Source of the DNA: Nanohaloarchaea archaeon SW_7_43_1
GTDB lineage: Archaea > Nanohalarchaeota > Nanosalinia > Nanosalinales > Nanosalinaceae
NCBI GenBank assembly: GCA_003009795.1
Contig: PXPE01000001.1
Span: 320,739-384,738 of the forward strand
Reading direction: 5' to 3'
DNA: 64,000 nucleotides
Shown: positions 48,665 to 64,000 of the stretch, one piece after another
How positions within the stretch are numbered: position 1 is the first letter of the stretch
How the letters are laid out: each line of letters opens with the position of its first letter
Notes under the pieces: generated by a model
What the model was told of the DNA's origin: nothing
What the model saw: the letters and a program-made list of their open reading frames with translations, nothing else
Databases searched by the model: none
Made by a program: the position numbers and the translations under genes

Positions 48665-48694
48665 AATTGTTTGTTGTTAATTCCGGCTTAAATA

Positions 48695-49249: not shown

Positions 49250-49812
49250 ATAATCACCTGGACTTCTCTTTGTGCTCCGTCTACTAGGTTTCGGGAGATA
49301 ACAGAATCTGCTTCCGGAACAGTTCCCTTGCTGTACTGTTTCTGTACCTCAAAGGTGAGATAAGGAGCTCCGGTGAAGTTGAGGTACCCAGATCTTCGGG
49401 AGAGGACTACCTCATTGTAACCCTCGCTGCTTGAGCTGAAGACATCTTCACCTCTATAATTCACGTCGAAGCTATTGGTTGAATGAACCCAGAGAATCAG
49501 TTTCTTGTATCCTTGATCCAGTTCGTATTCCTGTTCGCTGTTAATCTTCTGTCTAGTTCTATTTATTTTGTTTATTCTAGCTGTGGAGTTGTAGTTTTTC
49601 GGCGTGTAAGGTTCTATGTTCTCCGTTATCTCGTTTGTAGAATTTCCTAGTTGATCTCTGTCCTGGAGTGAAAGCATGCCTTGTTCAACCGGTTCGAAAC
49701 TTGGTTCAGGCTCTGATACCGTATTCGGTATGACAAAAATTGATACTGAAAGAATTAATGATGAAGCTATCACTGCTTCAAGAGTGTACACAAAACCTTT
49801 TCTCATCGCCAA
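49240..49812 (-). CDS. pilin-like protein (class III signal)
   Basis: MAMRKGFVYTLEAVIASSLILSVSIFVI. 190 aa. 10-nt overlaps on both sides. Confidence 0.65.
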   Translation of the reverse strand: MAMRKGFVYTLEAVIASSLILSVSIFVIPNTVSEPEPSFEPVEQGMLSLQDRDQLGNSTNEITENIEPYTPKNYNSTARINKINRTRQKINSEQEYELDQGYKKLILWVHSTNSFDVNYRGEDVFSSSSEGYNEVVLSRRSGYLNFTGAPYLTFEVQKQYSKGTVPEADSVISRNLVDGAQREVQVIMWK

Positions 49813-52088
49813 ACCACCACTTTGTTCTGAATCGGCTCCAAGCCCCCCGTACGGTTTATTATAAGTGATTCAGTGTCTCTCACAAAAGTGTCTGTAAAAG
49901 GTATATTGTTACCTGCATTCAGAAGGCTTAGATTATTAGCCGGATCAATAAATACTTTTGAGCTTTGGACTTCCCAGCTTTTCGATGCATTCTCCGAGGT
50001 TCCATTGAAACCTAATTCTAACTGCTCTGAATCTCTAACGCCAATACTGTAGTTTTTAAGTCCTTCCTGGACAACCAGGTTCTGCCGGCCAAGTTGGTTC
50101 CCGAATTCGTTATAGGCATTGATTTGTGCTGATAAAGCGGTTTCATCAGGTACTGAAGCATTGATCTCCAGTTCGGTCCAGTTTTTCTCATCGTTATCTC
50201 CAAATCGGTTGCTGGTATAGTTTCCTTCGAACTTTCCGTTTTTACCTTTGAAGTAAAGATCTTCGACATCAGAGTTGGATAGGCTGCGGTTGTATATCCG
50301 GATTTCATCAAGTTTTCCATCATAGTGTGTCTCGTTATCGGCTTCGGCTCCTAACGCTATAGAGTTGGTATTTGTTGAAGGGGAACCGGTATCATCAGTG
50401 TCTGAAGCTCTTCTTTCACCATTCACGTAGATATACCTATTGTTGTTAGAATCATCAAATACCGCGGTTAAATGGTACCAGTTACCGACATTGATCAGAT
50501 CTGAGGTATCAAGACTGACGGTATCCATTCCCCTCACAAAAAACCTTAATCTGCCCTGACCAGGATCACCGTAAGATAATGCCCAGCCGTTACCGCCTGA
50601 ATCTTTTTCCACCAATCTCTGACCGGAGGAAGGCCTTGAATCAGGATTAATCCATAAAGATAACGAAAAATCACCGGTCTGAATATTATCTGATATACCT
50701 GTATCAACATAATCATCGGTGCCATCAAAGTCAAATGATTGAGTACTGAAAGTACCGTTAACTCCTCTATTTACTCCGTTTTCAGGTATTCCATCATTTC
50801 CTTCACCGGAATAATCAATGACATTACCGGATTCTCTGTCCATCCGCCAGTATCCTACCAAGCCTTTGGTTAGGTCAATGCCTGCTGATCCATCTCTGTA
50901 TCCGATTCCCAAAGTACCTGAATTGTTTTTCCTATCTGCTGAAGTCCCGGTATAACTTCCTTTATTCCAGTCTCCTTGGTTTGATATGTACTGTTGAATG
51001 GTTCTGAATTTCTGTTTGGCGGCTTCTGCGAAACCGAATGTTATATTGTATCCTTGGTTTCCGAGCTCCAGTTTTTTCTCAAGTTCCTGCTGTCCAATAG
51101 TGTTTAGTTCCCTGATATTTTCCCTGGTTGCACCTCTTATTTTTTCTGATACACCGAAATAGATTTCGCCTTCTTTGTACGTTTTAGCTCTTTTCCATCC
51201 TTCAACATAATCTGAGTTATGAAGCATAATCCTAAGCCTGTCAGTCTCTATTTCTGCCTTCACCACATCAGATCCATCAGATTTCGTGACGTTGGCGTCT
51301 AGATCTCCGATAAAGCTTATTCCGTAATTGGATGCAACTGTGAACCCTTTTGTCTGGTTTGATTTAGATACCTGACCTTCTAGAGGCGTGGTTGAGTTAT
51401 CGTTCTCCCAGTAAAGGGTTGAAAGGTTTTTGAGATAGAAGGTTGTGGTCTGAGTATCTTCTACAATTATCTCCGGTGTTTCCTCATAAACTGTCAGGTT
51501 ACCGTCGAAGGTTGAAGCCGAGATCGTCTTTTTTTCAGTACTGTAGTCTGTATACTGGAAGGTTGCATTATCGTTTAGTAACTCATTCCCTTCTATCTGT
51601 AAAGAGGTAAGTCCGGGGTTTTCAGGATTTACTGTTATCAAACTGTTTGAGATATCCCCATTGGTTGAAATATTGGTCGTACTTGTGTTATCTAGAATGC
51701 TTTCTTCGTAGTGACTCATTTCATAGGTTGAGTTACTGCCTTCAATTACAGCTTTCACGTTTTTCCCGCTTACGTTGATGTTTGAGGTTGTATTCATCGA
51801 CCCTGAGTTTTTCGCAGTCGAGCCATGGAAAATATGGGGTTGGTTGACAGGTATATCATACTCCAGTTCTACAGGTGTTCTCACGTAGAGATTGGTTTTA
51901 CGGCCTTCGATATAGGTTTCTTCCTCTAGGTTTGAGGAAATCTCTGCAAGCTTGTTCTGGATTCCCGATGAGTCTAGTACCTGTAGTTCAGGCTGTGAGA
52001 TTATTATTACCGCTGAAAGGGTTGTAATCAGGAAAAGGGATAAGCCGATAGTCCAATCAATGTTTATTGCCTGACCTACGGATTTCAT
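49803..52088 (-). CDS. large pilin-like protein with LamG (concanavalin-A-like lectin) domain
   Basis: N-terminus MKSVGQAINIDWTIGLSLFLITTLSAVIII. The central region GLVGYWRMDRESGNVIDYSGEGNDG...FDFDGTDDYVDTG...FSLSLWINPD...GNWYHLTAVFD...YIYVNGE...GKLDEIRIYNRSLS is a clear Laminin_G_3 pattern. Dense N-x-S/T sequons. Confidence 0.8.
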   Translation of the reverse strand: MKSVGQAINIDWTIGLSLFLITTLSAVIIISQPELQVLDSSGIQNKLAEISSNLEEETYIEGRKTNLYVRTPVELEYDIPVNQPHIFHGSTAKNSGSMNTTSNINVSGKNVKAVIEGSNSTYEMSHYEESILDNTSTTNISTNGDISNSLITVNPENPGLTSLQIEGNELLNDNATFQYTDYSTEKKTISASTFDGNLTVYEETPEIIVEDTQTTTFYLKNLSTLYWENDNSTTPLEGQVSKSNQTKGFTVASNYGISFIGDLDANVTKSDGSDVVKAEIETDRLRIMLHNSDYVEGWKRAKTYKEGEIYFGVSEKIRGATRENIRELNTIGQQELEKKLELGNQGYNITFGFAEAAKQKFRTIQQYISNQGDWNKGSYTGTSADRKNNSGTLGIGYRDGSAGIDLTKGLVGYWRMDRESGNVIDYSGEGNDGIPENGVNRGVNGTFSTQSFDFDGTDDYVDTGISDNIQTGDFSLSLWINPDSRPSSGQRLVEKDSGGNGWALSYGDPGQGRLRFFVRGMDTVSLDTSDLINVGNWYHLTAVFDDSNNNRYIYVNGERRASDTDDTGSPSTNTNSIALGAEADNETHYDGKLDEIRIYNRSLSNSDVEDLYFKGKNGKFEGNYTSNRFGDNDEKNWTELEINASVPDETALSAQINAYNEFGNQLGRQNLVVQEGLKNYSIGVRDSEQLELGFNGTSENASKSWEVQSSKVFIDPANNLSLLNAGNNIPFTDTFVRDTESLIINRTGGLEPIQNKVVVWR

Positions 52089-53014
52089 CAGTATATACCT
52101 ACTGAGTTTTCTCCTTCTTTGGTTATTTCAAAGTCATATCTTCCAGGTCTATATGATATATTGGAATCTAGATCTATTTCCGGATCGTAGATTACTCTTA
52201 CCTCCCGGATTTCAGGTAAAACGTATGCGAAGCTTGGTTTGATCTGTTCGAGGAACTCGTTTTGTTTGATCAGTTCTTTCCGGTTCTGGATTTTGTTGCG
52301 GTCTCCTTCGGTTAATGGTATAATGAAATCAGAAGATGCAGAATCAGACTTCATTACATACACGTTTTCCTCATCAATCCTTCTTGAGGCTGAAGACATT
52401 TCATCTGATACGATTCCGGAAGCTAATTCATCTCCCTCTGCGACCATGGCAGGGTAATCAGCTGAATCAAAACTTTGTTCACCTTCAACTTCCTCATTAT
52501 CAAAGTAGACATCATCGTTTGAAGTAAGATTGAACTCTATCTCCAAGGTGATGTTTTCAGGTTCAGCATAACTTCCACAGACAAGTCTGTTGAACAAACT
52601 TGGTCCTCCCACATGAGCGTTATCCAGTCCTGATACGGAGAAAAGCTCTGTTTCGTTAGCTAGACATGTTTCGCCTATTAAGGTGGTTCTTGTACTCATT
52701 TCGCTGGTACAGACATTTAACCGGTATCCTCCGAATGTGGAGAAATGTGCGTTATCTTCTCTACTGCTTAAATGGAAACCTGTTGTACCGGTACATCTTT
52801 CTTTTTGTATGTCTACATCTGAGATGCCTTCAATACAGAGGTTATTATCGTAATAACCGGGTTCTGCTGGATGACTGTATCGTTTATTGGGATCTGAGAT
52901 GGATATCAACGGTTCTTCCCGTGGTTCACATTGATCTCTGAACTCAGTTTCTATCTGTCCGGATACTGATGATACAAGAAGTATGCAAATAAGGGACAGG
53001 AATGTTTTTCTCAT
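52088..53014 (-). CDS. secreted Cys-rich protein (Sec-type signal)
   Basis: MRKTFLSLICILLVSSVSGQ signal. Eight Cys in the mature part and a duplicated DNAH...LN/LVC element. First gene of the operon. Confidence 0.6.
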   Translation of the reverse strand: MRKTFLSLICILLVSSVSGQIETEFRDQCEPREEPLISISDPNKRYSHPAEPGYYDNNLCIEGISDVDIQKERCTGTTGFHLSSREDNAHFSTFGGYRLNVCTSEMSTRTTLIGETCLANETELFSVSGLDNAHVGGPSLFNRLVCGSYAEPENITLEIEFNLTSNDDVYFDNEEVEGEQSFDSADYPAMVAEGDELASGIVSDEMSSASRRIDEENVYVMKSDSASSDFIIPLTEGDRNKIQNRKELIKQNEFLEQIKPSFAYVLPEIREVRVIYDPEIDLDSNISYRPGRYDFEITKEGENSVGIY

Positions 53015-53036: not shown

Positions 53037-53060
53037 GATTATTAAACCTGATTTTTAAAC
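53037..53060. promoter_or_regulatory. back-to-back TATA-like boxes in a 59-bp divergent intergenic region
   Basis: TTTAATAAT on the minus strand (53037-53045) lies 23-31 nt from the ATG at 53012-53014. ATTTTTAAAC on the plus strand (53051-53060) lies 23-32 nt upstream of the second ATG (53083) of the 53074 gene. Confidence 0.3.
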
Positions 53061-53073: not shown

Positions 53074-53703
53074 ATGTTAAGTATGCCTGATACGTTTGGA
53101 GCCGGAGATATGAAAGAAAGTTTTGATAAAAAATCGTTTAGTTTTCTAGTTTCCGGACTGATTCTAGGTTCGGTTGTGGTATTTTTATCATTGAATGCTG
53201 GTACTGTAGGCAGCGAAGAGGCGGCTCAAGACCTGGTATCGACTTTAGAGCAGAGTTCAGGTCAGGATCTCGAGGTTGTGAATGTTGAGGAAAGCAATGG
53301 TTTGTACAAGGTTGAGGTAAAAGACGGTAATAACCAACTTTCCACATATTATATGACGAGAGATGGAGAGATGATAGCTCAGGATACAGCTATGACTAAC
53401 TTTCCTGAGTTCAGACAACAAGTCTCCGCACAGACAAACTTTTCCTCTTGTCTAGAGGATGAAGGTGTCGTAATGTTCGGGAACCGGTCTCAAAGATCAA
53501 CTGCCACTCAGATCCAGATTCTGGGAGGTCTGAACATGGTGTCAGGGATTTATGCTGATGTCAATAATGAGCAGATTCTGAATCAGGCTCAACAGATTGG
53601 AATACAGAGAATACCGGCTTTTGCAACAAATGAGTCTGCTGTACAGGGAGTACAGACAGTACCGCAGCTGGAGGAGTTTTCAGGCTGTGAATACAACGGT
53701 TAG
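53074..53703 (+). CDS. membrane-anchored protein with probable thioredoxin-like fold lacking the CxxC site
   Basis: TM anchor FSFLVSGLILGSVVVFLSL. The C-terminal FSSCLEDEGVVMFGNRSQRS...IGIQRIPAFATNESAVQGVQTVPQLEEFSGC parallels F-x-x-C-L...YGA-x-WCPHC...GI-x-x-x-PT...G-x-Q-x-x-x-x-L...GC domains recalled from memory. Confidence 0.45.
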   Translation: MLSMPDTFGAGDMKESFDKKSFSFLVSGLILGSVVVFLSLNAGTVGSEEAAQDLVSTLEQSSGQDLEVVNVEESNGLYKVEVKDGNNQLSTYYMTRDGEMIAQDTAMTNFPEFRQQVSAQTNFSSCLEDEGVVMFGNRSQRSTATQIQILGGLNMVSGIYADVNNEQILNQAQQIGIQRIPAFATNESAVQGVQTVPQLEEFSGCEYNG

Positions 53704-53708: not shown

Positions 53709-54152
53709 ATGGAGGAGAAAAAAGAAAAACTGCAGGATCTCAGAAAGGATCTGGACCGGAAATTAGATTCAGGTGTAGAAAATTTGCTGGTCTACGGTGT
53801 TATTGGTTTTGCGGCAGTATTTGCCACAGCTTTTCTCTATTCAAGTCCTCCAGAAGTTTCTCAAGGTGAAGATGGGAGAAATGTTATTACAGAGGGAGAG
53901 ACTATAGATGTAACTGTGGGCAGTGAAGGAGTTGAACCCTTTAGACCGGTAATATCGCCGGAAGACGGAATCAATTTTACCAACAACGCAGATCACCAGC
54001 TTGAATTTGAGTTTGATAGACATGTTGATTCTTTCTCACTTCGGTCCGGAGAAAGCCGGGTCGTGGATACGAATATGACAGTTTATTATGACGTAACTGC
54101 ATCGGTACAGGAGGAGTTCCGAACTATTTCAGCAGGTATTTCAGTTCAGTGA
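53709..54152 (+). CDS. membrane-anchored small beta-sandwich (cupredoxin-like?) protein
   Basis: TM anchor LLVYGVIGFAAVFATAFLY. FRPVISPEDGINFTNNADHQLEFEF...LRSGESRVV resembles a cupredoxin-type layout but shows no obvious Cu ligand set. 5-nt gap from the previous gene. Confidence 0.4.
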   Translation: MEEKKEKLQDLRKDLDRKLDSGVENLLVYGVIGFAAVFATAFLYSSPPEVSQGEDGRNVITEGETIDVTVGSEGVEPFRPVISPEDGINFTNNADHQLEFEFDRHVDSFSLRSGESRVVDTNMTVYYDVTASVQEEFRTISAGISVQ

Positions 54153-54175: not shown

Positions 54176-54183
54176 TTTAAATA
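54176..54183 (+). promoter_or_regulatory. TATA-like box TTTAAATA upstream of the 615-aa surface-protein gene
   Basis: Lies 33-40 nt upstream of the GTG start at 54216. Confidence 0.3.
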
Positions 54184-54215: not shown

Positions 54216-56063
54216 GTGGAAAATCTAAAAATAATCTTAGCGATATTTTTGTCATTGTTTCTAGTGGCCAATGTTGGCGCACAGGACCCAAGACATCCGT
54301 TAAGTCAGATATATCCGATAGATACTGATCTGGGTATGGAGGCCCAAGATATTAGGAATGTCTCACAGCTCCAGTTGAATGATGGTATAGGAGATAAAGG
54401 GCTTTTGCTTGAAGGATACAATATTTCAGGTGAGGGAGAGTCACAGAAGATTATTCTTGATTATCAAAACGATGAATGGGATATTCAGAACTCAAATGTA
54501 AACATGAACGGGAACAACATAACAAATATTGATACCCTTCTGTTCGAGACCGGTATGAAAATCAACGGCTCAATTAATACCTCAGGCGGAAACGTCAACC
54601 TGGATAACGGTTCTATAACAAATGTATATTCGATTGATGGCGGAGGCGACCCAATAAACTTTTTCGACCCGATTGATATGAATGGAAATCATCTTGAGGA
54701 TTCGAATGGGAACCTGGAGATTCGGGGCAAGGTCTATCTTCCTACCGGAGCCCTTGTTATGGGAGGAAATCCTATTCAAAATCCGGGTAACGTGGACGGC
54801 GTTGATATAGGTAAACCTGGTGACGGAATTGGTGTAACGGATTCACGATATGAGATAGTAGAGGATGCGATCGGAGACTCGGAGCTGAACAACTCAGAAG
54901 AATTTACCGCTGACGGACTTGTTCTTACATCCAATCTCAATATGACAGGTAATGATATAGAGACCGGTGGCGGGGATATGGCTGTGATAGATACTGCGAA
55001 CGAACAAGATATAATAAGACTAAAGGAAGGTGGAGATATCCAGATTCCGAGTGGCGATGTTGATATTGGAAATCCTTCTAATACTGGGAAAGCATTGGAT
55101 GTGGGAGGCGGCATCAACGTAGAAGAAAACATAGATCTGAACGGCAATGACATCAATTCATCAGGAACCGGCTTGAAAATAACCTCAGATACCAGCAATA
55201 ATTATCTAGCATTCACGGATGTTGGTCAATCAGAGGATCTACTTAGGGTAAATAATGGAGATGGTGACGGAGTCTCAGTACTTAATGAGAATCTTAATCT
55301 GAATGAAAACAACATAGAGAATGTAGATGGATTACGGGACGGTTCTGGAGCCAATACCATCAAGTTCGACGGAAATAACAATGTGAGTATACCAAATGGC
55401 AATGTTGATATTGGAAATCCTTCTAATACAGGAAAAACGTTGGATGTTGGTGGTGGAGCCAATTTCGACGATGTTGTTGATATGAATCAAAACAGTATTG
55501 AGACGGTAGACAGCCTTGAAGGTACTTCCGGAAGCTCTCTTGAACTATCGGTTTCAGGTAATGGCGGATCGGAACTTGTACTGGATAGTTCTGGTGATGT
55601 CCAGGTTCAAAACGGTGATCTTGACTTAAGAGGAAACTCGGTTACAGACGGAACTTCAAGTAACATAGTGAGTATTGGTGATGGAGTTGATGACAGTGTT
55701 GTCATAGATGGAGATGTCGGGTTTGGTGGAGACCTTGACTTGGCTAGTAGTTCAATCAAAAACTATTATGATTCGGCGTGTCCGTCCGGAAAGACCATAG
55801 CAAATATAGAAGATGATGGCAGCTTCCAATGTGTAGATGTATCGGAAGAAGTTTCTGATGTCTATGTTAACAGATCCGGGGATACAATGACGGGTGATCT
55901 CAACATGTTGGGTAATCAAGTGAATAATGTATCTAGGCTTGGCGTGGGAACAGCCGATCCTCAGGAAAACCTTGATGTTGATGGAACCGCATCTGTCGAA
56001 AACTCGGGAACGCGTATGGAAGTCGACTCCTCTGGTGATGTGGTGGTGACATTAGGGCCATGA
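54216..56063 (+). CDS. secreted repeat protein, tail-fibre-like adhesin candidate
   Basis: Sec signal ENLKIILAIFLSLFLVANVGAQ. Duplicated IP(S/N)G(D/N)VDIGNPSNTGK(A/T)LDVGGG element, and the phage-fibre-like SGDTMTGDLNMLGNQVNNV near the C-terminus. G/N/D/S-rich. Confidence 0.8.
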   Translation: MENLKIILAIFLSLFLVANVGAQDPRHPLSQIYPIDTDLGMEAQDIRNVSQLQLNDGIGDKGLLLEGYNISGEGESQKIILDYQNDEWDIQNSNVNMNGNNITNIDTLLFETGMKINGSINTSGGNVNLDNGSITNVYSIDGGGDPINFFDPIDMNGNHLEDSNGNLEIRGKVYLPTGALVMGGNPIQNPGNVDGVDIGKPGDGIGVTDSRYEIVEDAIGDSELNNSEEFTADGLVLTSNLNMTGNDIETGGGDMAVIDTANEQDIIRLKEGGDIQIPSGDVDIGNPSNTGKALDVGGGINVEENIDLNGNDINSSGTGLKITSDTSNNYLAFTDVGQSEDLLRVNNGDGDGVSVLNENLNLNENNIENVDGLRDGSGANTIKFDGNNNVSIPNGNVDIGNPSNTGKTLDVGGGANFDDVVDMNQNSIETVDSLEGTSGSSLELSVSGNGGSELVLDSSGDVQVQNGDLDLRGNSVTDGTSSNIVSIGDGVDDSVVIDGDVGFGGDLDLASSSIKNYYDSACPSGKTIANIEDDGSFQCVDVSEEVSDVYVNRSGDTMTGDLNMLGNQVNNVSRLGVGTADPQENLDVDGTASVENSGTRMEVDSSGDVVVTLGP

Positions 56064-56290
56064 ATGATTACCAAGATAAGAGAATATCCTATACATCGCA
56101 CGCCAAACAAAGGATTAGAGAGAGATTTATCTCCAGGAAAGACGTTGAGAAAGGAATTTTGAACCGTAAATGGAAAGAGGCCTACGGAGATAAACAGAAG
56201 GTGATCCAAGCAATCAATGGAAAAGAAATAGAGATAATTTTAAAACCTGAAGATGATAAAATTCTGGTTATAACAGTTTATTGGAGGTAA
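56060..56290 (+). CDS. DUF4258-family putative toxin
   Basis: 76 aa. ISYTSHAKQRIRERFISRKDVEKGI matches the DUF4258 H-A-x-x-R-x-x-x-R-x-I core. ATGA overlap with the upstream gene. Confidence 0.7.
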   Translation: MNDYQDKRISYTSHAKQRIRERFISRKDVEKGILNRKWKEAYGDKQKVIQAINGKEIEIILKPEDDKILVITVYWR

Positions 56291-56296
56291 GGTAAA

Positions 56297-56509
56297 ATGG
56301 ATTTAAGTTTTGACTCTGAGGCTGATGCGGTCTACATTCGATTTTCAGACCGTGACATCAAAGACAGCAACAAAATAGATGAAAGGACAATCGTTGATGT
56401 CGATGAGGATCAAGAAATTGTAGGAATAGAGGTTCTAGAAGCATCAGAAAGATTCAATGAAATATCCAGCCTGAATGTAGATTTCGAGCCAGAGGAAATG
56501 AAAGCTTAA
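56297..56509 (+). CDS. DUF2283-family putative antitoxin
   Basis: 70 aa. MDLSFDSEADAVYIRFSD...IVGIEVLEAS is the DUF2283 pattern. The stop lies 2 nt before the next start. Confidence 0.75.
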   Translation: MDLSFDSEADAVYIRFSDRDIKDSNKIDERTIVDVDEDQEIVGIEVLEASERFNEISSLNVDFEPEEMKA

Positions 56510-56511
56510 AA

Positions 56512-59500
56512 ATGAAATATTCGAGAGCATTACCGCTTTTAGCAATTCTTCTAATCTCTACAACTCCTTTAGGAGCCGCAAACGATTATATTATACAGGA
56601 TAGTGGTGAGAATCCTTTGTTCGCTGTGAATGAATCAGGGGAAAAACAGGTCTATAACGGTGAACTGGATTTGAACGGGAATAATGTAACTTCGGTAGGA
56701 GGACTTGAGTTAGGTTGGGAGAATCTTACTGATTATCCATCAGGTTGTGGTTCGAATGAAGCGGTCAGGGTGATCGGTGATACCATTGGCTGTACGTCTT
56801 TGAATCCGGGAGGAACTGTAGAGACCGGTGGTGGATCGAAAGGCCAGGTTGCTTACTTTATTGATTCGGAAAATATTACAGGAAGCGATAACTTTTACTG
56901 GAATAACTCTGAGATCGAACTAGGTATTGGAACCAACACTCCTTCCGCAGCGTTAGATGTAAACGGTGATGTAAAGATAAATGATGGTCTGGATATGGCC
57001 TCATCAGATATTACAGGAATTAATGATCTTGGAGGTACAGGTATAGTTGATAACAACCAGTTATCTGATGGAGCGGTTACTTCTAGTAAAATAGGTGGTC
57101 AGGAAGTAACTTCAAACAAGTTAAATACCGGTGTAGCTGGAACAGGGCTTTCAGGTGGAGGCGGTTCTTCTTTATCGGTTAATACTGATACAGGCCTAAC
57201 CACGAGCGGAGACAGTGTTTTGATTAATACAGCGGTTGTTCCCCGGAAAGGAGAAGATGAGACAATTACAGCTTCACAGTGGGTATACGAAAACGATGTC
57301 CAGGTTCAGGGTAACCTAGATGTTTGGGGCAATATAACTAATACAGATGTAGAGAACCTGAACATTAACGGTTCATTATTACCGCCTTCAGGTTACTCTG
57401 ATACATTTGATATAGGTTCTCCTTCCCGAAGATGGAAAACAGGATACTTCCAGGATATGGAACTCGGTAACAACGTGATTGATAATTCGGAGCTGGCAAA
57501 TACTGGTTTCTCAACGGATACTAACTCAGGTATAGACTCTGGTTCTGTTAATCTAGGTGGGGAACTAACAATTAATCACTCAGATACCTCCTCAGTGAGC
57601 GATAGCGATACTACGAATTCGGACGGCCAGGTTCTACAGGACCTTACGTTTGATGGTTTCGGGCATGTACAGACTCAATCAACTAAAGACTTGGATAACC
57701 GGTACTACACCGAGGCAGAGAGTGATGAAAACTTTGTGGATGAAAGCGGGGATACAATGACCGGAACATTGAATCTAAACCAGGGAGGAACAAACCTTGC
57801 TTTGAAACCAGGTTCCACAGATCACAGCTATATGGAGTTTTATGCTGACTCCGATAATCCAGGAACAAGATCAGGTTGGATAGGTTATGGATCCGGTGGC
57901 TCAGATCAGTTACGGATAAAGAACCAGATGGGAGGTAATCTTATACTTGACCCTGGCACAGATGAGGTAAGTGTTGCAGGTAATCTAAAAATGAATTCTA
58001 ATTCGATTAATGGTTTCTTCGGAGGTAACTGTCAGTCCGATGAAGTTGTAAAAAAAGTTAACAGCGACGGAACGTATAACTGTCAATCTATTACAGGAGC
58101 ATCTGATGATACTTACGTCAACGAAGGCGGAGATACGATGACCGGTAACCTCAATATGAGCGGTGACAACATCCAGAACGTAGGAACAATAAATGCATCA
58201 CAGCTGGAGAAAAACGGTAACACAGTCACCAGTCTATTCCTTGATATTTCAGGTGATGCAATGAGCGGCCAGATCAACATGCAAGGTAACCCTGTAACGA
58301 ATGTAGAAACCATCGATATGAACCAATCAGGCCAGATACAGACAGACAGTACAAACGCAGTAAGTATTGACAGCAACCAGAACGTAGAAATTTCGAACGG
58401 CGATCTAAATCTTGGGGATAACCAGCTTACCAATGTCGGAGGAACAGACTGTGACGCTGATGAAACATTACTAGGTGACGGCAGCTGTGGTACAACCGGC
58501 GGTAACCTCTCTGAGACTTTGAAAGCAGGGAATGAGGCTGGTAACACCGATATAAACCTTACCGGCCAGCAGATACTTGATACAACTGGCTCAGTAACAC
58601 TCGGAGGAGGAAACGTCGACATACCTGACGGAGAATTGGATGTAGGCAGCCCATCGAATACTGGAAGCGTGTTGGATGTAGGTGGAGACCTTAGAACTGA
58701 GGGAGCAATGAGAATTGATAACCCTGGAGCAAACGACTTCCTAACCGTTAGCGGAAGTAACATAGACCCACATACTCTTCGTTTTGATGATCGTTCCTTC
58801 CGGATTTACAGTGGCGACAACGCGGAGGCAGGTTTACGGATAGATAACGAGACAGCTAATATTGATACCTCCGGAAACAATTTGACCGATACCCAGAAAG
58901 GGAATGTCACCATCGGTCAGGATCTTAAGGTGTACGGAGACATTTGGGCGCCCGGAACAGGAGGAAGTGGCGGAAGCGGAGGAAGTGGAGAAACCGAAAA
59001 CCTATCAGAAACCCTGACCGCAGGGAATGTAGCTAACCGAACCATAGAATTTGGAGAAGATACGAACGTCGAGATAGGTAGAAATACTGCAACAAATGAA
59101 GAAAGCCTCGCAATCGGTAAAGGTGCACAGGCTGACGGTACGGATGCAGTTGGTTATCCTGGTAATGAGACTGCTGTAGGTACCGATGCAGCTGCAACCG
59201 GAACCCGGAGCTCTGCGTTTGGTGCCTCTGCAGAGGCCACTGGCATTGGCTCGACGGCGATTGGAGAGGGTGCAAGTGCCACTTCTACCCGGCAGACGAC
59301 AGCGATTGGAGGTGATTCAAGCGCCACCGCCAGCTTTGCAACGGCGATTGGATATTTTGCAGATGCCTCTGGCTATCAGGCGACTGCGACTGGAGAACAA
59401 TCAGAGGCCTCTGCTCTTGATGCAACAGCAACTGGATACGTTGCAGATGCTACCGCTCAGGAATCAACGACGACCGGAGCCTATGCAGAGGCTACTGCAT

Positions 59501-60936
59501 TTGGTGCAACGGCGACTGGACACAATGCAGATGCCTCTGCCAATAGTTCGACAGCGACCGGATCTGAAGCAGTTGCTTCGGGCAAGGGTAGTATAGCATT
59601 GGGCGGTGACCTTCAAAACGGCGACATCACTGGTGCGGAAGCCGAAAAAGAAGCATCGGTGGCAATCGGACCGAATGCTGTAGCACCTAACAGCTACGAG
59701 GCAACATTCGGTAATCTGGACGGCCAAGAACTGGACGTGAACATCACCGGTAACCTTACCGTTCATGGCGATGACTTTATTGAGCCGGGCCCGAATACAA
59801 ATATAGAGATAGGCAGAAATACTGAGACGAATAACGAGTCACTGGCGATCGGAAAAGGTGCCTTGGCAAACGGTTCCGATGATGGGTTTGGTAACTTCGG
59901 TAATGAGACTGCTGTAGGTACCGGTGCTGTTGCTACCGGAGTCATAAGCTCAGCATTCGGCGCCTCGGCTGAGGCCACTGGCCAGTCTGCTATAGCTACT
60001 GGGAGTTATACTGTGGCCTCTGACAGTGAGGCGACAGCTACTGGTTACTTTGTAAATGCAACTGCAATTCGTGCCACGGCGACTGGAAGCCGTGCAGACG
60101 CTACTGCCCGGCGCGCAACGGCGACTGGAGCTTTTGCAGAGGCCTCTGGTAGTGATGCGATAGCTACTGGAAGCCAGGCAGAGGCAACCATCAGTAATTC
60201 GATAGCGACTGGAAATCAAGCAAGGGCCAGTGCCTATGGCGCGACAGCGACTGGATACTATGCAGATGCCGCAGGGCAAGGCAGCGTGGCATTAGGCTCA
60301 GATCTTGGCGGCGATCCTTTTATCGGTGCAAATGCTTCTCAAAGAGCGTCTATTGCGATTGGGCCGGATGCCGTTGCAAGCAAACCAGGTTCTGTTGCTA
60401 TAGGCAACGGCTCGAAAGCCGAACATGATGATACAGTTACATTAGGTGATAGAGATGGAACAGCTTACGATCTGAGGGTTACCGGAAATATTTACACGGA
60501 TGGTGGAGACCTAGCGGAGTTCTATCAGAGTCCGCAGGACCTTGAAGCAGCGGAGGTTGTAAAGATCTCGGAAGAACGGGATAACAGGGCGGTTAGAACA
60601 GATGAGAAGTTTGAGGAGAAGGTCTTCGGCGTAGTCTCTTCGGATCCAGGTCAGATCATGAACACAGAGGAAGAGGAGGAAGGGCATGCGATAGCACTGG
60701 AAGGTAAAGTACCTGTCAAGCTGAAAGAAGGAGTATCTGTAGATAGAGGAGACCGTATAGCTCCAAGTAAAGTAGAAGGAAAAGCAACTACGTGTAAGGT
60801 TATTGACCCTGAGGAAAACAAGGAGATGGATTTACGGGAAATAATCAGCCACAATCAGAAATGCGAGTCATCAACCGTTGGAAGATCACTTGAAAAAGCA
60901 GAAGACACTGATGAAGTACTGGTGAAACTTGAATGA
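56512..60936 (+). CDS. giant secreted repeat protein: tail-fibre-like N-terminal two-thirds, two YadA-head-like (Hep_Hag-type) repeat modules, globular C-terminal domain
   Basis: Sec signal MKYSRALPLLAILLISTTPLGAA. Motifs ESGDTMTGTLNLNQGG, EGGDTMTGNLNMSGDNIQNV and ISGDAMSGQINMQGNPVTNV. Heptad-like AxG repeats such as TAIGEGASATSTRQTTAIGGDSSATASFATAIGYFADASGYQATATG. 1474 aa. Confidence 0.85.
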   Translation: MKYSRALPLLAILLISTTPLGAANDYIIQDSGENPLFAVNESGEKQVYNGELDLNGNNVTSVGGLELGWENLTDYPSGCGSNEAVRVIGDTIGCTSLNPGGTVETGGGSKGQVAYFIDSENITGSDNFYWNNSEIELGIGTNTPSAALDVNGDVKINDGLDMASSDITGINDLGGTGIVDNNQLSDGAVTSSKIGGQEVTSNKLNTGVAGTGLSGGGGSSLSVNTDTGLTTSGDSVLINTAVVPRKGEDETITASQWVYENDVQVQGNLDVWGNITNTDVENLNINGSLLPPSGYSDTFDIGSPSRRWKTGYFQDMELGNNVIDNSELANTGFSTDTNSGIDSGSVNLGGELTINHSDTSSVSDSDTTNSDGQVLQDLTFDGFGHVQTQSTKDLDNRYYTEAESDENFVDESGDTMTGTLNLNQGGTNLALKPGSTDHSYMEFYADSDNPGTRSGWIGYGSGGSDQLRIKNQMGGNLILDPGTDEVSVAGNLKMNSNSINGFFGGNCQSDEVVKKVNSDGTYNCQSITGASDDTYVNEGGDTMTGNLNMSGDNIQNVGTINASQLEKNGNTVTSLFLDISGDAMSGQINMQGNPVTNVETIDMNQSGQIQTDSTNAVSIDSNQNVEISNGDLNLGDNQLTNVGGTDCDADETLLGDGSCGTTGGNLSETLKAGNEAGNTDINLTGQQILDTTGSVTLGGGNVDIPDGELDVGSPSNTGSVLDVGGDLRTEGAMRIDNPGANDFLTVSGSNIDPHTLRFDDRSFRIYSGDNAEAGLRIDNETANIDTSGNNLTDTQKGNVTIGQDLKVYGDIWAPGTGGSGGSGGSGETENLSETLTAGNVANRTIEFGEDTNVEIGRNTATNEESLAIGKGAQADGTDAVGYPGNETAVGTDAAATGTRSSAFGASAEATGIGSTAIGEGASATSTRQTTAIGGDSSATASFATAIGYFADASGYQATATGEQSEASALDATATGYVADATAQESTTTGAYAEATAFGATATGHNADASANSSTATGSEAVASGKGSIALGGDLQNGDITGAEAEKEASVAIGPNAVAPNSYEATFGNLDGQELDVNITGNLTVHGDDFIEPGPNTNIEIGRNTETNNESLAIGKGALANGSDDGFGNFGNETAVGTGAVATGVISSAFGASAEATGQSAIATGSYTVASDSEATATGYFVNATAIRATATGSRADATARRATATGAFAEASGSDAIATGSQAEATISNSIATGNQARASAYGATATGYYADAAGQGSVALGSDLGGDPFIGANASQRASIAIGPDAVASKPGSVAIGNGSKAEHDDTVTLGDRDGTAYDLRVTGNIYTDGGDLAEFYQSPQDLEAAEVVKISEERDNRAVRTDEKFEEKVFGVVSSDPGQIMNTEEEEEGHAIALEGKVPVKLKEGVSVDRGDRIAPSKVEGKATTCKVIDPEENKEMDLREIISHNQKCESSTVGRSLEKAEDTDEVLVKLE
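59059..60490 (+). repeat. two tandem ~0.7-kb diverged coding modules inside the 1474-aa gene (approximately 59059-59760 and 59794-60490)
   Basis: Both begin (D/P)TN(V/I)EIGRNT(A/E)TN(E/N)ESLAIGKGA...GNETAVGT...SSAFGASAEATG and end ...S(V/I)AIGP(N/D)AVA.... Shared DNA strings include ggtaatgagactgctgtaggtacc at about 59160 and 59898. Confidence 0.7.
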
Positions 60937-62216
60937 GTCAAGACACCGAATACATAGAGATCAAAAGACATGAACTGGAGGAGAAGGTAGAGGAAAGAGT
61001 CAGAGAGAAAGTTGAGGAAAAAGAATCCGCCGACAACAAACAGAAAATAGACACAGCATTGTCAAGAAGAGAACTGCTGAAGCTATCAGGACTAGGCATA
61101 GGAGCACTAAGCCTCTCCACACTAACCTCTGGCTGGAGTGTTGTTCAGCCTGAATCCGATGGTGTGAGTGAGGTTGATGTTTTTAGCGTGAATGGTCATC
61201 GTTTATGGGTCCAGGATAGTGCGCCCTCCGGCCCAGAAGTGAGTGATTTATGGTATTCGACCTCTGAAGCCGGTAGTCAAGGATGGGTTTATATTGGCAA
61301 CAATAGTGTGGTGGGAGATGTTGCTGTAGGCCCGAGTGGTGATTATGTTTATAGTGGTGACTGGTATAATGGAGTACATCGGATTGATGTTTCGAATCCA
61401 AGTATTGATGAGTGGGTTTATGAGGGTCATTCTAACTCTGTATACGGTGTTGCTGCAGGCCCTAACGGTGATTATGTGTACAGTGGTTCTAGGGATGAGG
61501 AGGTTCATCGGATTGATGTGTCGAATCCTAGTCAGCCCGACTGGGTGTATACCGAGCATTCTGACAGGGTTGCGAGTGTTGCTGCGGGCTTGAATGGCGA
61601 TTTTGTGTATAGCGGTTCTTGGGATTATGATTTGCATAAAATTGATGTGTCAGATCCCCCTCAAACAGACTGGGTTTATGATGGCCATTCTGACTCTGTG
61701 ACAGATGTTGCTGTCGGTCCTGATAATGAATATGTTTACACTAGTTCTTGGGATGAGGAGGTTCATCGGATTGATGTGTCGAATCCTAGTTCAGCAGACT
61801 GGATTTACACCGATAATACTGGCCAAGTGTACTGTGTTGCTACAGGTCCGAATGGTAATTTTGTGTATAGTGGTTCTTATGGTGAAGTGCATCAGATAAA
61901 TGTTGATGGTAGTCAGGGCTGGGTGTATACGGGTTATTCTAAGAATGTCTATGATGTTGCTGCAGGTCCAAATGGTGATTATATATATGTCGTCGCAAGG
62001 CAGGATGAGGAGGTTCATCGGATTGATGTGTCGAATCCTAGTCAGCCCGACTGGGTGTATACCGAGCATTCTGACAGGGTTGCGAGTGTTGCTGCGGGCC
62101 AGAATGGTAACTATGTGTACAGTGGTGACTATGATTATAAGGTTCATCAGATCAGTAATATTAGGGAGGGTTCCATAGTTTACTGGGATGGCAGTAACTG
62201 GGAGGGTTACCAATGA
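60933..62216 (+). CDS. Tat-signal seven-bladed WD40-like beta-propeller protein, paralog 1
   Basis: The acidic ~44-aa N-region is followed by SRRELLKLSGLGIGALSL (twin-arginine motif plus h-region). Seven ~42-aa repeats W(V/I)Y.GHS..V..VA.GPNGDYVYSGS.DEEVH(R/Q)I.VS. ATGA overlap with the giant gene. GGTGA lies 7 nt upstream. Confidence 0.8.
   Translation: MSQDTEYIEIKRHELEEKVEERVREKVEEKESADNKQKIDTALSRRELLKLSGLGIGALSLSTLTSGWSVVQPESDGVSEVDVFSVNGHRLWVQDSAPSGPEVSDLWYSTSEAGSQGWVYIGNNSVVGDVAVGPSGDYVYSGDWYNGVHRIDVSNPSIDEWVYEGHSNSVYGVAAGPNGDYVYSGSRDEEVHRIDVSNPSQPDWVYTEHSDRVASVAAGLNGDFVYSGSWDYDLHKIDVSDPPQTDWVYDGHSDSVTDVAVGPDNEYVYTSSWDEEVHRIDVSNPSSADWIYTDNTGQVYCVATGPNGNFVYSGSYGEVHQINVDGSQGWVYTGYSKNVYDVAAGPNGDYIYVVARQDEEVHRIDVSNPSQPDWVYTEHSDRVASVAAGQNGNYVYSGDYDYKVHQISNIREGSIVYWDGSNWEGYQ
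61493..61589 (+). repeat. 97-bp perfect direct repeat, copy A (copy B at 62003-62099)
   Basis: Base-by-base comparison shows the copies are identical, with mismatches immediately outside both ends. The 510-bp offset equals four blades in frame. Confidence 0.9.
62003..62099 (+). repeat. 97-bp perfect direct repeat, copy B
   Basis: Identical to 61493-61589. Encodes DEEVHRIDVSNPSQPDWVYTEHSDRVASVAAG. Confidence 0.9.
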
Positions 62217-62267
62217 GGACAGTTCAAAAAGTATGTTGTACAGGAGTAGGTCTGAGGTGATAAAACA

Positions 62268-63563
62268 GTGGGTGATACCGATGATGAGATTGTAAGGATT
62301 AAGGAGTCAGCGCTCAACGATTTGATTGAGGAAAAAGCCAAGGAAAGGCTTCAGAATCGAAACGATGATACTAAAGATACTGCAACGAAAGGCTTCCACT
62401 CTATCTCTAGGAGACAGTTTCTCAAGTATACAGGTCTAGGGATTTCCGGAATCACTCTACCGTCTCTGGTTTCTGCTCAGAGTATTATCCAACCTCAAGA
62501 AGATGGTGTGAGTGAGATTGATGCTTTTAGTGTGAATGGTCATCGTTTATGGGTTCAAAGTGATGAGCCTTCCGGTCCGGATCCTAATGATTTGTGGTAT
62601 TTGACCGAGAACAACAGTGTTCAGGGCTGGGTTTACACCGGTCATTCTGAAATTGTGGCTGTTGTTGCCGTTGGTCCGAATGGTGATTATGTGTATAGCG
62701 GCAGTTATGATGAGGAGGTTCATCAGATTAGTGTTAGTGATGGTAGTGGGGGCTGGGTTTATACCGGTCATTCTGGGGAAGTTTATGGTGTTGCTGCGGG
62801 TGTCAACGGTGAATATGTGTACAGTGGCGGTGGTTATACTGATGAGGAGGTTCATCAGATTAGTGTTAGTGATGGTAGTGGGGGCTGGGTTTATACCGGT
62901 CATTCTGACGATGTAAGGGATGTTGCTGTTGGTCCGAATGGTGATTATGTGTATAGCGGCAGTTATGATGAGGAGGTTCATCAGATCAATGTTAGTGATG
63001 GTAGTCAGGGCTGGACTTATTCGGGTCATTCTAGCTCTTCTCTGAGTGTTGCTGCGGGTCCTAACAGTGATTATGTGTATAGTGGTTTTGGATTTAGTGA
63101 AAATGAGGTGCATCAGATTAGTGTTAGTGATGGTAGTCAGGGCTGGACTTATTCGAGCAATACTGGCCCTGTGCGTGGTGTTGCTGCGGGTGTCAACGGT
63201 GATTATGTGTACAGTGCCGCTGATGAGGAGGTTCATCAGATCAATGTTAGTGATGGTAGTCAGGGCTGGACTTATTCGAGAAATTCCGTTTTTGATTTGG
63301 AAGATGTTGCTGTGGGCCCCAACGGCAATTATGTATATTGTTGTTCTTCGGACGATAATGATGTCCATCAGATTAGTGTTAGTGATGGTAGTGGGGGCTG
63401 GGTTTATACCGGTCATTCTACCAGTGTGGAAGATATTGCTGTGGGCACTAACGGTGATTATGTGTATAGTGGTTCTCAGAACAGTGAAAATGAGGTGCAT
63501 CAGATCAGTAGCATTAACGAGGGTTCTATGGTTTATTGGGATGGCAGTAATTGGAGGGGTTAA
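62268..63563 (+). CDS. Tat-signal seven-bladed WD40-like beta-propeller protein, paralog 2
   Basis: GTG start lies 8 nt after GAGGTGA (62253-62259). SRRQFLKYTGLGISGITL. Seven repeats GW(V/T)Y(T/S)GHS..V..VA.GPNGDYVYSGS.DEEVHQI.VSDGS. Confidence 0.8.
   Translation: MGDTDDEIVRIKESALNDLIEEKAKERLQNRNDDTKDTATKGFHSISRRQFLKYTGLGISGITLPSLVSAQSIIQPQEDGVSEIDAFSVNGHRLWVQSDEPSGPDPNDLWYLTENNSVQGWVYTGHSEIVAVVAVGPNGDYVYSGSYDEEVHQISVSDGSGGWVYTGHSGEVYGVAAGVNGEYVYSGGGYTDEEVHQISVSDGSGGWVYTGHSDDVRDVAVGPNGDYVYSGSYDEEVHQINVSDGSQGWTYSGHSSSSLSVAAGPNSDYVYSGFGFSENEVHQISVSDGSQGWTYSSNTGPVRGVAAGVNGDYVYSAADEEVHQINVSDGSQGWTYSRNSVFDLEDVAVGPNGNYVYCCSSDDNDVHQISVSDGSGGWVYTGHSTSVEDIAVGTNGDYVYSGSQNSENEVHQISSINEGSMVYWDGSNWRG
62670..62728 (+). 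repeat. 59-bp perfect direct repeat (second copy 62928-62986)
   Basis: Identical strings gttggtccgaatggtgattatgtgtatagcggcagttatgatgaggaggttcatcagat. The 258-bp offset equals two blades in frame. Confidence 0.9.
62708..62775 (+). repeat. 68-bp perfect direct repeat (second copy 62840-62907; a shorter third copy lies near 63366-63419)
   Basis: Identical strings tgatgaggaggttcatcagattagtgttagtgatggtagtgggggctgggtttataccggtcattctg. The 132-bp offset equals one blade in frame. Confidence 0.9.
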
Positions 63564-64000
63564 TGATGAGCGATAAAGAAAATGATTTTATAGGAGTCGA
63601 GAGATCGGAGGTGGAAGACCTTGTTGATGAAAAAATTGAGGATGTAGCGGAATCCGATTACCAAGAGAATGAGGAAAACAAGTCCTGGAACCTGATGTCC
63701 CGTAGAAAGTTTTTGAAGTCAACCGGTTTAGGCGCAGGTCTTCTAGGTGTTTCCTCCCTGGTTTCTGGATACAGTATTGTGCAGCCTCAAGAAAATGGAG
63801 AGAGTGATATTGATGCTTTCAGTGTGAACGGTCATCGTTTATGGGTTCAAGGTGGCTCTCCTTCTGGTCCAAGTGCGAATGATCTATGGTATTCGACCGA
63901 GAACAACGGCGTTCAGGGCTGGACTTATTCTGGTCATTCCGACACCGTGTATGATGTTGTTGCGGGCCCGAATGGCAATTACGTGTATAGTGGTTCTGGC
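63563..64000 (+). CDS. Tat-signal WD40-like beta-propeller protein, paralog 3 (5' part; continues past window end)
   Basis: ATGATG at 63563-63568, just after GGAGGGG, opens MMSDKENDFIGVERSEVEDLVDEKIED...SRRKFLKSTGLGAGLLGVSSL...FSVNGHRLWVQ...GWTYSGHSDTVYDVVAGPNGNYVYSGSG, which stays open to base 64000. Not in the ORF track because there is no stop in the window. Confidence 0.78.
   Translation, partial: MMSDKENDFIGVERSEVEDLVDEKIEDVAESDYQENEENKSWNLMSRRKFLKSTGLGAGLLGVSSLVSGYSIVQPQENGESDIDAFSVNGHRLWVQGGSPSGPSANDLWYSTENNGVQGWTYSGHSDTVYDVVAGPNGNYVYSGSG

Follow-up and report, generated by a model that had tools for sequence, protein, structure and literature searches.

A predicted host-attachment island with phage-fibre-like parts in Nanohaloarchaea archaeon SW_7_43_1

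Do seven closely packed genes of a nanohaloarchaeon encode one dedicated system for contact with a partner cell, or are they parts of units that meet at one place in the chromosome? The question is raised by a stretch of 64,000 nucleotides (nt) of Nanohaloarchaea archaeon SW_7_43_1 (contig PXPE01000001.1, positions 320,739 to 384,738 of the forward strand), here called the window, whose positions 54216 to 64000 carry genes for two long repeat proteins resembling phage tail fibres, a putative toxin-antitoxin (TA) pair and three propeller proteins. An earlier note on this DNA had described them as one candidate cell-contact system. With moderate confidence in the account as a whole, mechanism included, we read the region instead as the variable core of a chromosomal cell-surface island with phage-tail-fibre-like adhesins, consisting of two modules and a selfish insertion. 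Islands of this kind have already been noted in nanohaloarchaea, and the one described here is predicted to serve host attachment in a DPANN archaeon with parts that resemble phage fibres.

The map of open reading frames (ORFs) agrees exactly with the seven same-strand genes described earlier from 54216 to the window end, and the junctions are read in the sequence as an ATGA overlap at 56060-56063, gaps of 6 nt and 2 nt, a second ATGA overlap at 60933-60936, a gap of 51 nt and a shared A at 63563. Lengths of the products are given in amino acids (aa).

54216-56063, plus strand: fibre 1 ORF, 615 aa, GTG start
56060-56290, plus strand: DUF4258 protein ORF, putative toxin, 76 aa, basic
56297-56509, plus strand: DUF2283 protein ORF, putative antitoxin, 70 aa, 31% Asp+Glu
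56512-60936, plus strand: hybrid fibre ORF, 1474 aa
60933-62216, plus strand: propeller 1 ORF, 427 aa
62268-63563, plus strand: propeller 2 ORF, 431 aa
63563-64000, plus strand, running off the window end: propeller 3 open frame, first 146 of 432 residues

Protein BRC29_02175 of Nanohaloarchaea archaeon SW_7_43_1 matches the 615-aa product at 100% identity, and the 1474-aa protein is PSG98917.1 (BRC29_02190). Exact look-ups of the propellers, the 427-aa protein and the NCBI form of fibre 1 returned no entry, and the sequence beyond the window was followed in a near-identical contig, L008.

Related loci were compared by BLAST after the surrounding DNA of five other nanohaloarchaeal lineages had been fetched. 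These loci are L001 (Ca. Nanohalobium constans), L002-L005, L006/L011 (a sister lineage), L007 and L017; a further one, L008, is a metagenome contig of essentially the same strain as the window (DNA identity 92-96%). Compared in this way, the locus joins two modules, A and B, and the seven genes are not one conserved unit. Module A, as delimited by gene order, comprises an operon of pilin-like and LamG proteins, a 209-aa and a 147-aa protein, fibre 1, fibre 2 and a membrane protein of ~390 aa, and is syntenic in all five lineages (L001, L002-L005, L006/L011, L007 and L017). Its genes ahead of fibre 1 in the window are the following.

47945-53014, minus strand: divergent five-gene operon (239, 184, 190, 761 and 308 aa), context of module A
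53074-53703, plus strand: 209-aa protein (N-terminal hydrophobic segment), conserved gene that opens the fibre strand
53709-54152, plus strand: 147-aa protein with an N-terminal hydrophobic segment, with paralogs spread through related loci

Four of the five genes of the divergent operon encode pilin-like N-termini (class III type). The 761-aa protein carries a LamG domain (Pfam Laminin_G_3, 2.5e-33), DUF7289 (4e-6) and DUF7288 (5e-3) were also matched in this operon, and its orthologs stand in the same order in L003, L006, L007 and L017. On the opposite strand the order is a ~205-aa protein, often a ~150-aa protein, fibre 1, an overlapping fibre 2 and then the ~390-aa protein; in most lineages the island adjoins gatD and gatE. 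The 209-aa protein is 90% identical to the 206-aa protein of L006, 44% to the 203-aa protein of L003 and 40% to the 201-aa protein of L007. The 147-aa protein is 66% identical to the 154-aa protein of L006, with weaker copies in L001, L003, L007 and L011. The ~390-aa protein follows fibre 2 in four lineages (L001 14755-15951, L003 15530-16690, L006 14616-15797 and L007 16630-17823); it has hydrophobic segments at both ends, W..(V/I)D...G.Y.S repeats and a weak match to the SBBP propeller repeat, and is a candidate membrane platform for the fibres. BLAST comparison over the whole window did not find its gene anywhere. The idea that the fibres and the divergent LamG-pilin operon belong to one surface island agrees with this synteny. 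Generic glycoproteins at scattered positions were not what the comparison revealed: fibre 1, fibre 2 and the divergent operon keep their places, and every named sequence among the 19 detectable homologs of fibre 1, Ca. Nanohalobium constans included, is nanohaloarchaeal.

The two modules meet within the 1474-aa gene, in which four parts can be distinguished.

56512-58656, plus strand: fibre 2 core, residues 1-715, Sec-type (general secretory) signal and conserved part, recognised by identity to fibre 2 orthologs
58960-58989, plus strand: GGSGGSGGSG linker, residues 817-826, at the junction of the fibre 2 and fibre 3 parts
58984-60507, plus strand: two tandem YadA-head-like repeat blocks, residues 825-1332, recognised by a YadA_head match
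60508-60936, plus strand: probable phi29 gp12-type (Peptidase_G2-like) intramolecular chaperone, residues 1333-1474, recognised by homologs, fold and motif

Residues 1-635 are 73% identical to residues 1-624 of fibre 2 of L011 (1105 aa), and the match to fibre 2 of Ca. Nanohalobium constans (53% identity) reaches residue 713; fibre 2 orthologs have the first ~715 residues in common and are entirely different beyond them. Residues 825-1474 are 63% identical to residues 875-1597 of the third fibre of L011 (P0035). Judged by these alignments, the 1474-aa gene is a hybrid, corresponding to fibre 2 in its N-terminal half and to the module B fibre in its C-terminal half. In L011 both are separate genes, in the order fibre 1 (616 aa), fibre 2 (1105 aa), a 393-aa protein, two TA pairs, a 265-aa protein and the third fibre. 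The simplest reading of the hybrid would be a recombination between the two fibre genes that deleted the 393-aa gene, the TA pairs and the 265-aa gene. Two other chimeras, P0017 (600 aa) and P0036 (1130 aa), combine the N-terminal domain of fibre 1 with a C-terminus of the same type. P0017 has a similar Gly/Ser junction followed by an NLS..L motif, and P0036 is the sole fibre at the island position in L017.

A false join of similar fibre modules during assembly would also account for both the hybrid and the absent ~390-aa gene. The source is a metagenome-assembled genome, its fibres have repeated modules in common, no independent contig runs across the junction, and propeller 2 is four repeats shorter in L008, so repeat collapse does occur in the region. 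On the other hand, the frame is open over 4.4 kb, P0017 has a natural module border at the kind of Gly/Ser linker where the join is placed, and chimeras of the same logic exist independently in other lineages (P0017, P0036). Furthermore, the two parts differ in their identity to L011 (73% vs 63%) and the ~190 residues between them match neither fibre, unlike a join at identical repeats. We consider an assembly artefact unlikely and retain the recombination of two fibre genes.

The repeat blocks of the hybrid matched YadA_head (PF05658) with E 2.6e-25 and 88.6 bits against a cut-off of 25, and the structure of BpaC (7o23) was matched at 3.7e-13. The blocks, at residues ~846-1333, are 48% identical to each other; the first ends in YEATFGNLDGQELDVNITGNLTVHG and the second in the related, more divergent TVTLGDRDGTAYDLRVTGNIYTDG. 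The NCBIfam model auto_Ata reached 1e-13 but 49.5 bits against a cut-off of 2500, and Pfam gave no YadA_anchor or YadA_stalk match in the 1474-aa protein. To our knowledge, archaea of the nanohaloarchaeal kind have no outer membrane. The YadA-like character proposed earlier is thus retained for the head repeats and dropped as regards a trimeric autotransporter, given the archaeal source and the missing anchor and stalk matches: the protein is adhesin-head-like, not a trimeric autotransporter adhesin (TAA). The head repeats, present in two blocks, are common to it and to YadA, BpaC and Ata; unlike these adhesins it is without an anchor barrel, a coiled-coil stalk and an outer membrane, and its trimerisation would probably be brought about by a chaperone domain of phage type. 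The G+C content is 0.50 at window positions 58001-60000 and ~0.42 elsewhere; since this rise coincides with the Ala/Gly-rich YadA-like blocks, it is taken as an effect of coding composition and not as a sign of foreign DNA.

The last 142 residues of the hybrid are probably a divergent intramolecular chaperone of the phi29 gp12 type, below the Pfam threshold, because of the Pfam matches of homologs, the predicted fold and a D-x-A-E motif. In the 1474-aa protein and its close homologs the domain occupies the final 142-165 residues, and five orthologs share an invariant G-(G/A)-D-(L/V)-A-E followed by GVVS.DP and PVK. An exhaustive profile search yielded 14,772 relatives; among 38 that were sampled, five match Peptidase_G2 (PF11962, best E 2.9e-9) and five carry YadA_head. 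In phage genomes, tblastn matches lay at the C-terminal ends of tail fibres of Campylobacter phages (0.01), one of them with a sub-threshold PF11962 match over the same stretch, and of a PA5oct virion protein (1e-5); in phages PA5oct and CP21 the match likewise lies at the protein C-terminus. The tail-fibre family phrog_19602 matches the C-terminus of the 1474-aa protein at 5e-4, and a word-index search with the C-terminal 175 residues gave no match.

The AlphaFold2 (AF2) model of the domain, built from a 28-sequence alignment, has a pLDDT of 88.7 and a pTM of 0.81. In the PDB, Foldseek matched this model to the pre-mature phi29 gp12 (3suc, E 2.8e-4, TMq 0.55) and to the gp12 C-terminal fragment (3gqh_A, E 2.6e-3, template-modelling (TM) score 0.51/0.54). 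In BFVD the top match had E 1.9e-13, with TM scores of 0.60-0.67; the matches include Campylobacter tail fibres and two models named 'Preneck appendage protein' (TM 0.65/0.65, E 1e-11 to 1e-9). Residues D1333 and E1336 of the sequence GGDLAEF are invariant in sets of 28 and 38 diverse homologs, and the Ala is nearly so. When the profile of 28 sequences was searched against the PDB, D1333 aligned to residue 1 of the released gp12 fragment 3gqh_A (DFAEYFES) and to the S|DFAE site of full-length gp12 (6qz9_A), with marginal E values of 0.016-0.035. The Asp and Glu of the D-x-x-E cleavage motif of gp12 are presumably catalytic, and self-cleavage is predicted before D1333, a precise feature that can be checked.

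The resemblance to phage fibres claimed earlier therefore holds and is extended by this domain at the end of the hybrid. In common with fibres and spikes of the gp12 type (PF11962; 3suc, 3gqh), the window protein is long and beta-rich, ends in a C-terminal domain of ~140-165 residues with a similar predicted fold, and has the D-x-A-E motif at the place of the S|DFAE cleavage site. It differs from gp12 in being encoded by a cell, with a Sec signal, no virion to dock on and a cleavage that is only predicted; its shaft consists of YadA-type head repeats and that of gp12 of a pectate-lyase-like beta-helix. The close relatives of the domain are nanohaloarchaeal and include Ca. Nanohalococcus occultus; among the distant ones are a Paceibacteria protein and giant proteins encoded on ~1-Mb contigs. 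In many proteins of 1,000-5,800 aa (P0051-P0182) only the first ~100 residues of the domain match, and they do so internally, so that small-genome organisms of other kinds may employ the domain in a second way, away from the protein end.

In fibre 1 a Sec-type signal is followed by an N-terminal domain of ~100 aa that is conserved and by a repeat region that varies; the ~130 aa at the C-terminus, with two Cys and an SGDTMTGDLNM motif, are highly conserved. Alignments of orthologs confirm the conserved ends and the variable middle, and between the window and the sister lineage L006/L011 the protein is 81% identical. Gly (14%), Asn (12%) and Asp (11.5%) are abundant, and 12 and 28 N-glycosylation sequons occur in the 615-aa and the 1474-aa fibre, respectively. 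The GenBank entry BRC29_02175 (599 aa) has its start 16 codons after the GTG at 54216 and lacks most of the signal peptide; because orthologs conserve this peptide, the GTG is supported as the start. The two motifs earlier quoted as common to both large proteins were found in each by regular expression, the first twice in the 615-aa protein (residues 277 and 392) and once in the 1474-aa protein (704), the second at residue 554 of the former and 580 of the latter. Motifs of the GDTMTG.L type stand at these last two positions and also at 413 and 540 of the 1474-aa protein. L016 contains an annotated phage tail fibre to which the GDTMTG region of fibre 1 can be aligned (pairwise E 2e-7, PHROG tail fibre 4e-12). 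This hallmark is common to phage tail fibres and to the window proteins, which, with Sec signals and a conserved chromosomal position, are not in a virion. In the viral-contig scan the sole match of fibre 1 was a generic one to this motif, in a fibre of bacterial-type phages, and the genome-contig scan with the fibre 1 profile, in a collection apparently without SW_7_43_1, returned SW_4_43_9 only. Relaxed Pfam searches gave no match for fibre 1, the fibre 2 core or the C-terminal domain, and profile and sequence searches of the PDB with fibre 1 and the fibre 2 core gave matches at chance level only. As stated in the earlier note, neither large protein ends in a hydrophobic helix that could span a membrane. 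Some relatives with the fibre 1 N-domain (among P0012, P0014, P0015 and P0016) end in (M)CIG(D/N)(R/Q)C and not in ...VVVTLG, and P0012 consists of six repeats that each contain GDTMTG and a Cys pair.

Between the two fibre genes lies the DUF4258/DUF2283 pair, whose identification was borne out by Pfam matches of 1.2e-11 and 9.5e-16. The DUF4258 protein contains 24% Lys+Arg as opposed to 31% Asp+Glu in the DUF2283 protein, and the genes are 6 nt apart. We take this pairing, from comparative-genomic surveys, to be a type II TA system. No related locus has such a pair: it is absent between fibre 1 and fibre 2 in L001, L003, L006/L011 and L007. By this comparison it is a putative mobile TA cassette that would have landed between two overlapping genes and would have no part in adhesion. 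Unrelated TA pairs crowd the fibre neighbourhood (L008 2846-9386, L011 7222-9060, L017 13451-14181) and belong to the families DUF433/DUF5615, VapBC, RHH/PIN, MazE/PIN and nucleotidyltransferase/HepT.

Downstream of the hybrid the propellers begin. Module B, as judged from gene content, is composed of a YadA-head fibre, three propellers with signals for twin-arginine translocation (Tat), a protein of ~100 aa and tatA-tatC. In L011 it is complete, with a 1597-aa YadA-head fibre, propellers of 435, 428 and 511 aa, a 101-aa protein, tatA and tatC. The start of propeller 1 overlaps the stop of the fibre gene (ATGA), as does its L011 ortholog, and both this overlap and the fibre-then-propeller order are kept between the two loci at protein identities of 52-65%; propeller 2 is 65% identical to the 428-aa protein of L011. 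Downstream of the array in L008 and L011, TatA (Pfam PF02416, 2e-13 and 1e-14) and TatC are encoded, at these positions:

L008 5948-6839 and L011 19446-20058: tatA-tatC, just downstream of the propeller genes

WD40 matches, repeat counts and SRR motifs agree with the earlier description of seven-repeat propellers with twin-arginine signals. The Pfam WD40 family was matched at 3e-28 and 2e-23 in propellers 1 and 2 (97 and 82 bits, cut-off 27), and each of the three propellers has seven repeats of ~43 aa anchored by W-x-Y (spacing 40-47 aa). Export through Tat is predicted from SRRELLK in propeller 1, SRRQFLK in propeller 2 and SRRKFLK in propeller 3, each followed by ~20 uncharged residues; TIGR01409 (Tat signal) matches propeller 3 with 21 bits against a cut-off of 16.7. 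In a crude scan of the 64-kb window, S-R-R-x-(F/L)-L-K signals were present in the three propeller ORFs and in no other. The array had been thought possibly longer than three genes, a suggestion not maintained: L008 contains the complete propeller 3 (1049-2347, 432 aa, 100% protein identity over the part common with the window), where the array ends, followed by a 104-aa acidic protein, several unrelated TA pairs and then tatA and tatC. Homologs of the propellers are few (14). L001, L003, L007 and what is visible of L017 have no propellers; the propeller query had no match in the genome-contig scan (collection apparently without SW_7_43_1), and the propeller profile had none in the metagenome-contig scan or in the viral-contig scan.

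A charged extension of ~45 residues, much longer than the usual Tat n-region, precedes the RR motif in all three propellers and in the L011 orthologs (window 60933-61070, 62268-62420 and 63563-63700). The extension may be a cytoplasmic handle, or the signal may be an uncleaved membrane anchor; the propellers could accordingly be soluble or held by an uncleaved Tat signal. Repeat number varies: propeller 2 has three repeats in L008 (260 aa, 267-1049) and seven in the window (62268-63563), and the third propeller of L011 (17436-18971) has nine with an exact internal duplication, which is either real number variation or collapse and expansion in assembly.

Salt-in Halobacteria export many folded proteins via Tat. 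The window propellers have the canonical S-R-R-x-F-L-K plus hydrophobic stretch and nearby tatA/tatC in common with Tat substrates of halophiles, and differ from them in that the signals are confined to three paralogs beside the translocase genes and are preceded by the charged extension of ~45 aa. In the cultivated nanohaloarchaeal strains, which have a TatC gene only, Tat was judged probably inactive (PMC10266531); at least one nanohaloarchaeal lineage, by contrast, has tatA, tatC and obvious substrates side by side. The lone TatC of the cultivated strain, SVXNc_0793, lies a few genes from the LamG/adhesin operon SVXNc_0798-0813 (Reva et al. 2023).

The association of fibres with propellers is independently supported by L011 and by two further cases. 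One is the tailed-virus contig L013, which encodes a portal, both terminase subunits (small and large) and a tail fibre (phrog_5073, 2e-36); the propeller P0022, encoded directly after this tail-fibre gene, is 36-38% identical to the window propellers and had no match in the viral-contig scan. The other is P0023, whose N-terminal propeller of the window family is joined to a C-terminal piece that matches the 1474-aa protein at residues 1017-1098 (49% identity); the LSETLTA.N.AN motif is present and the gene adjoins a phage-type integrase gene. In Salicola phage SCTP-2 the propeller family is present many times over. In L013, with phrog_8401 and SCTP-2 as further viral counterparts, a fibre gene is followed by an abutting propeller gene as in the window. 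The viral propeller has no signal peptide and is present in a single copy, unlike the three Tat propellers, and the viral fibre of L013 is collagen-like and unrelated in sequence to the window fibres.

Two other readings were weighed. Fibre and propeller genes could be leftover virion genes of a decayed provirus or tailocin-like element, since the C-terminal domain and the GDTMTG motif are phage-fibre features, the propeller matches phrog_8401, the fibre-then-propeller order occurs in a virus, and TA cassettes are common in mobile DNA. We hold this to be highly improbable. The window region, L008 and L011 contain no capsid, terminase, portal, tube, sheath, baseplate or integrase gene, and a provirus identity was rejected for this lack of head, tail and integrase genes; moreover, the island keeps its chromosomal position beside gatD/gatE across lineages, and the Sec signals of the fibres and Tat signals of the propellers would be needless for virion proteins.

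The second is the one with which we began, that all seven genes, TA pair and soluble propellers included, make up a single dedicated, co-transcribed and undescribed cell-contact system. Junctions are tight or overlapping throughout, one strong A/T box lies upstream, and fibres and propellers are linked in L011, L013 and P0023. Nevertheless, such a system appears distinctly unlikely: the TA pair is missing from all five related lineages, several other TA families occur in the neighbourhood as expected of mobile insertions, no propellers occur in L001, L003, L007 or the portion of L017 that can be seen, the gene order stems from a fusion with deletion, and a comparable operon has already been noted (PMC10266531). 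What survives of it is the conservation of the fibre genes and the divergent operon; the seven genes as one unit are not upheld, the TA pair being absent elsewhere and the propellers missing from four distant loci. The A/T box earlier called the only good one is present, and a second lies further upstream:

54176-54183, plus strand: TTTAAATA box, read from the sequence, candidate archaeal TATA element 33 nt upstream of the fibre 1 GTG
53052-53060, plus strand: TTTTTAAAC A/T box preceding the same-strand 209-aa gene

Given the second box ahead of the 209-aa gene, the transcription unit may start at that gene, earlier than fibre 1.

For the two-module island the following mechanism is proposed. 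The fibres, predicted to be Sec substrates, would leave the cell unfolded; outside, the C-terminal chaperone domain would serve as the nucleus on which the YadA-type head blocks and the beta-rich shaft fold into a trimer, and would then cleave itself off before D1333, exposing the distal tip. The conserved N-domain of fibre 1, which is kept in the single-fibre chimeras, would be the cell-proximal part and attach the assembly to the cell. The variable distal parts would bind the surface of a haloarchaeal host and be reshuffled between paralogs at Gly/Ser linkers. The conserved ends and variable distal modules suggest such a division into cell-binding and host-binding parts. The propellers would fold in the salty cytoplasm, exit through the neighbouring TatA/TatC and then work together with the fibre in binding or assembly, by analogy with the tailed virus of the same gene order. 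A more specific proposal, put forward tentatively as possible and short of probable, is that nanohaloarchaea domesticated a receptor-binding module of tailed viruses, a fibre with self-cleaving chaperone plus a propeller, to catch hosts, exporting the fibres via Sec and the propellers via the adjacent Tat and retuning specificity by module swaps. If this were true, a cellular symbiont would employ viral adsorption hardware for cell-cell attachment.

Alternatively, the proteins may be ordinary envelope or surface-layer (S-layer)-associated glycoproteins for structure, protection or nutrient capture, with no recognition of a partner, their phage-like features reflecting a common design of trimeric beta-proteins. 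The indirect link to a host, the 12 and 28 sequons of the fibres, the very wide distribution of the chaperone-like domain (14,772 relatives), which extends to the interior of giant proteins in other organisms with small genomes, and the occurrence of the propeller family in a probable haloarchaeon fit this view. Hypervariable distal parts with conserved ends and repeated module swaps are, however, the pattern of receptor-binding proteins under diversifying pressure, and the fibres adjoin genes for LamG lectin-like and pilin-like proteins, which have been proposed as host-attachment factors (PMC7443923, PMC10266531). We consider the envelope explanation rather unlikely.

Several observations weigh against the host-attachment island. 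Host binding is deduced only from the episymbiotic lifestyle of cultivated nanohaloarchaea (PMC7443923, PMC10266531). Outside the window strain, module B was found in one sister lineage only (L006/L011), and propellers are probably not specific to symbionts, since P0021, a very acidic protein of the same family with a Tat signal and CARDB-like repeats, looks haloarchaeal. For the chaperone, residues 1300-1474 had no Pfam match even at E 5, neither the C-terminal domain alone nor a 5-sequence profile matched a PDB sequence, and Foldseek also matched capsid decoration proteins of related fold. The AF2 monomer of fibre 1 (12 sequences) reached a pLDDT of 37.7, so that a fibre fold is only presumed for fibre 1 and the fibre 2 core, and no retention signal was found for the fibres. 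The fusion-junction peptide had no match in the metagenome-contig scan, which leaves the hybrid without independent assembly support. Two links with viruses were also not adopted. The ~100-aa protein as a homolog of a viral 116-aa protein was not accepted (BLASTP E 0.002, hhalign probability 11%). Nor was a haloarchaeal host for L013, suggested by its 66.7% GC, as its portal is without halovirus relatives and its propeller also matches the bacterial Salicola phage.

LamG lectin-like proteins have been proposed as part of a host-specific attachment system of nanohaloarchaea (La Cono et al. 2020, PMC7443923). For Ca. Nanohalococcus occultus, Reva et al. 2023 (PMC10266531) described an operon in which three LamG genes stand with those of a 1,693-aa TAA-like protein and a 1,386-aa protein with an R-type pyocin knob. 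The islands of this organism and of Ca. Nanohalobium constans, from the same phylum, combine LamG with large adhesin-like or phage-fibre-like proteins as the window does; the N. constans locus (L001) is a direct syntenic relative of the window, and a N. occultus protein carries the same C-terminal domain. Both papers give domain matches only and do not contain the triad of fibre 1, fibre 2 and the ~390-aa protein, the chaperone, the fusions or the Tat propeller module. The earlier statement that no archaeal system of such composition has been characterised stands as far as characterisation goes; the kind of operon had already been noted in Ca. Nanohalococcus occultus (PMC10266531). Full-text literature searches found no report of the triad or of a gp12-type chaperone domain, nor of fibre module swapping, a module of Tat propellers with tatAC, or the viral fibre-propeller parallel.

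Candidates for host recognition in DPANN archaea have so far been mostly lists of LamG, PKD and giant 'SPEARE' proteins. Experiments are possible, as cultivated strains have counterparts: Ca. Nanohalobium constans LC1Nh has the conserved fibre pair, with its fibre 2 homolog at CP040089 356013-359072, and Ca. Nanohalococcus occultus has a protein (WP_414836479.1) that ends in the C-terminal domain of the hybrid. The link with viral tail fibres further suggests one adhesion toolkit for the symbionts and the viruses of hypersaline communities.

With respect to other features of the 64-kb window, the sole RNA gene is a tRNA-Ser(TGA) at 3211-3301 on the minus strand.

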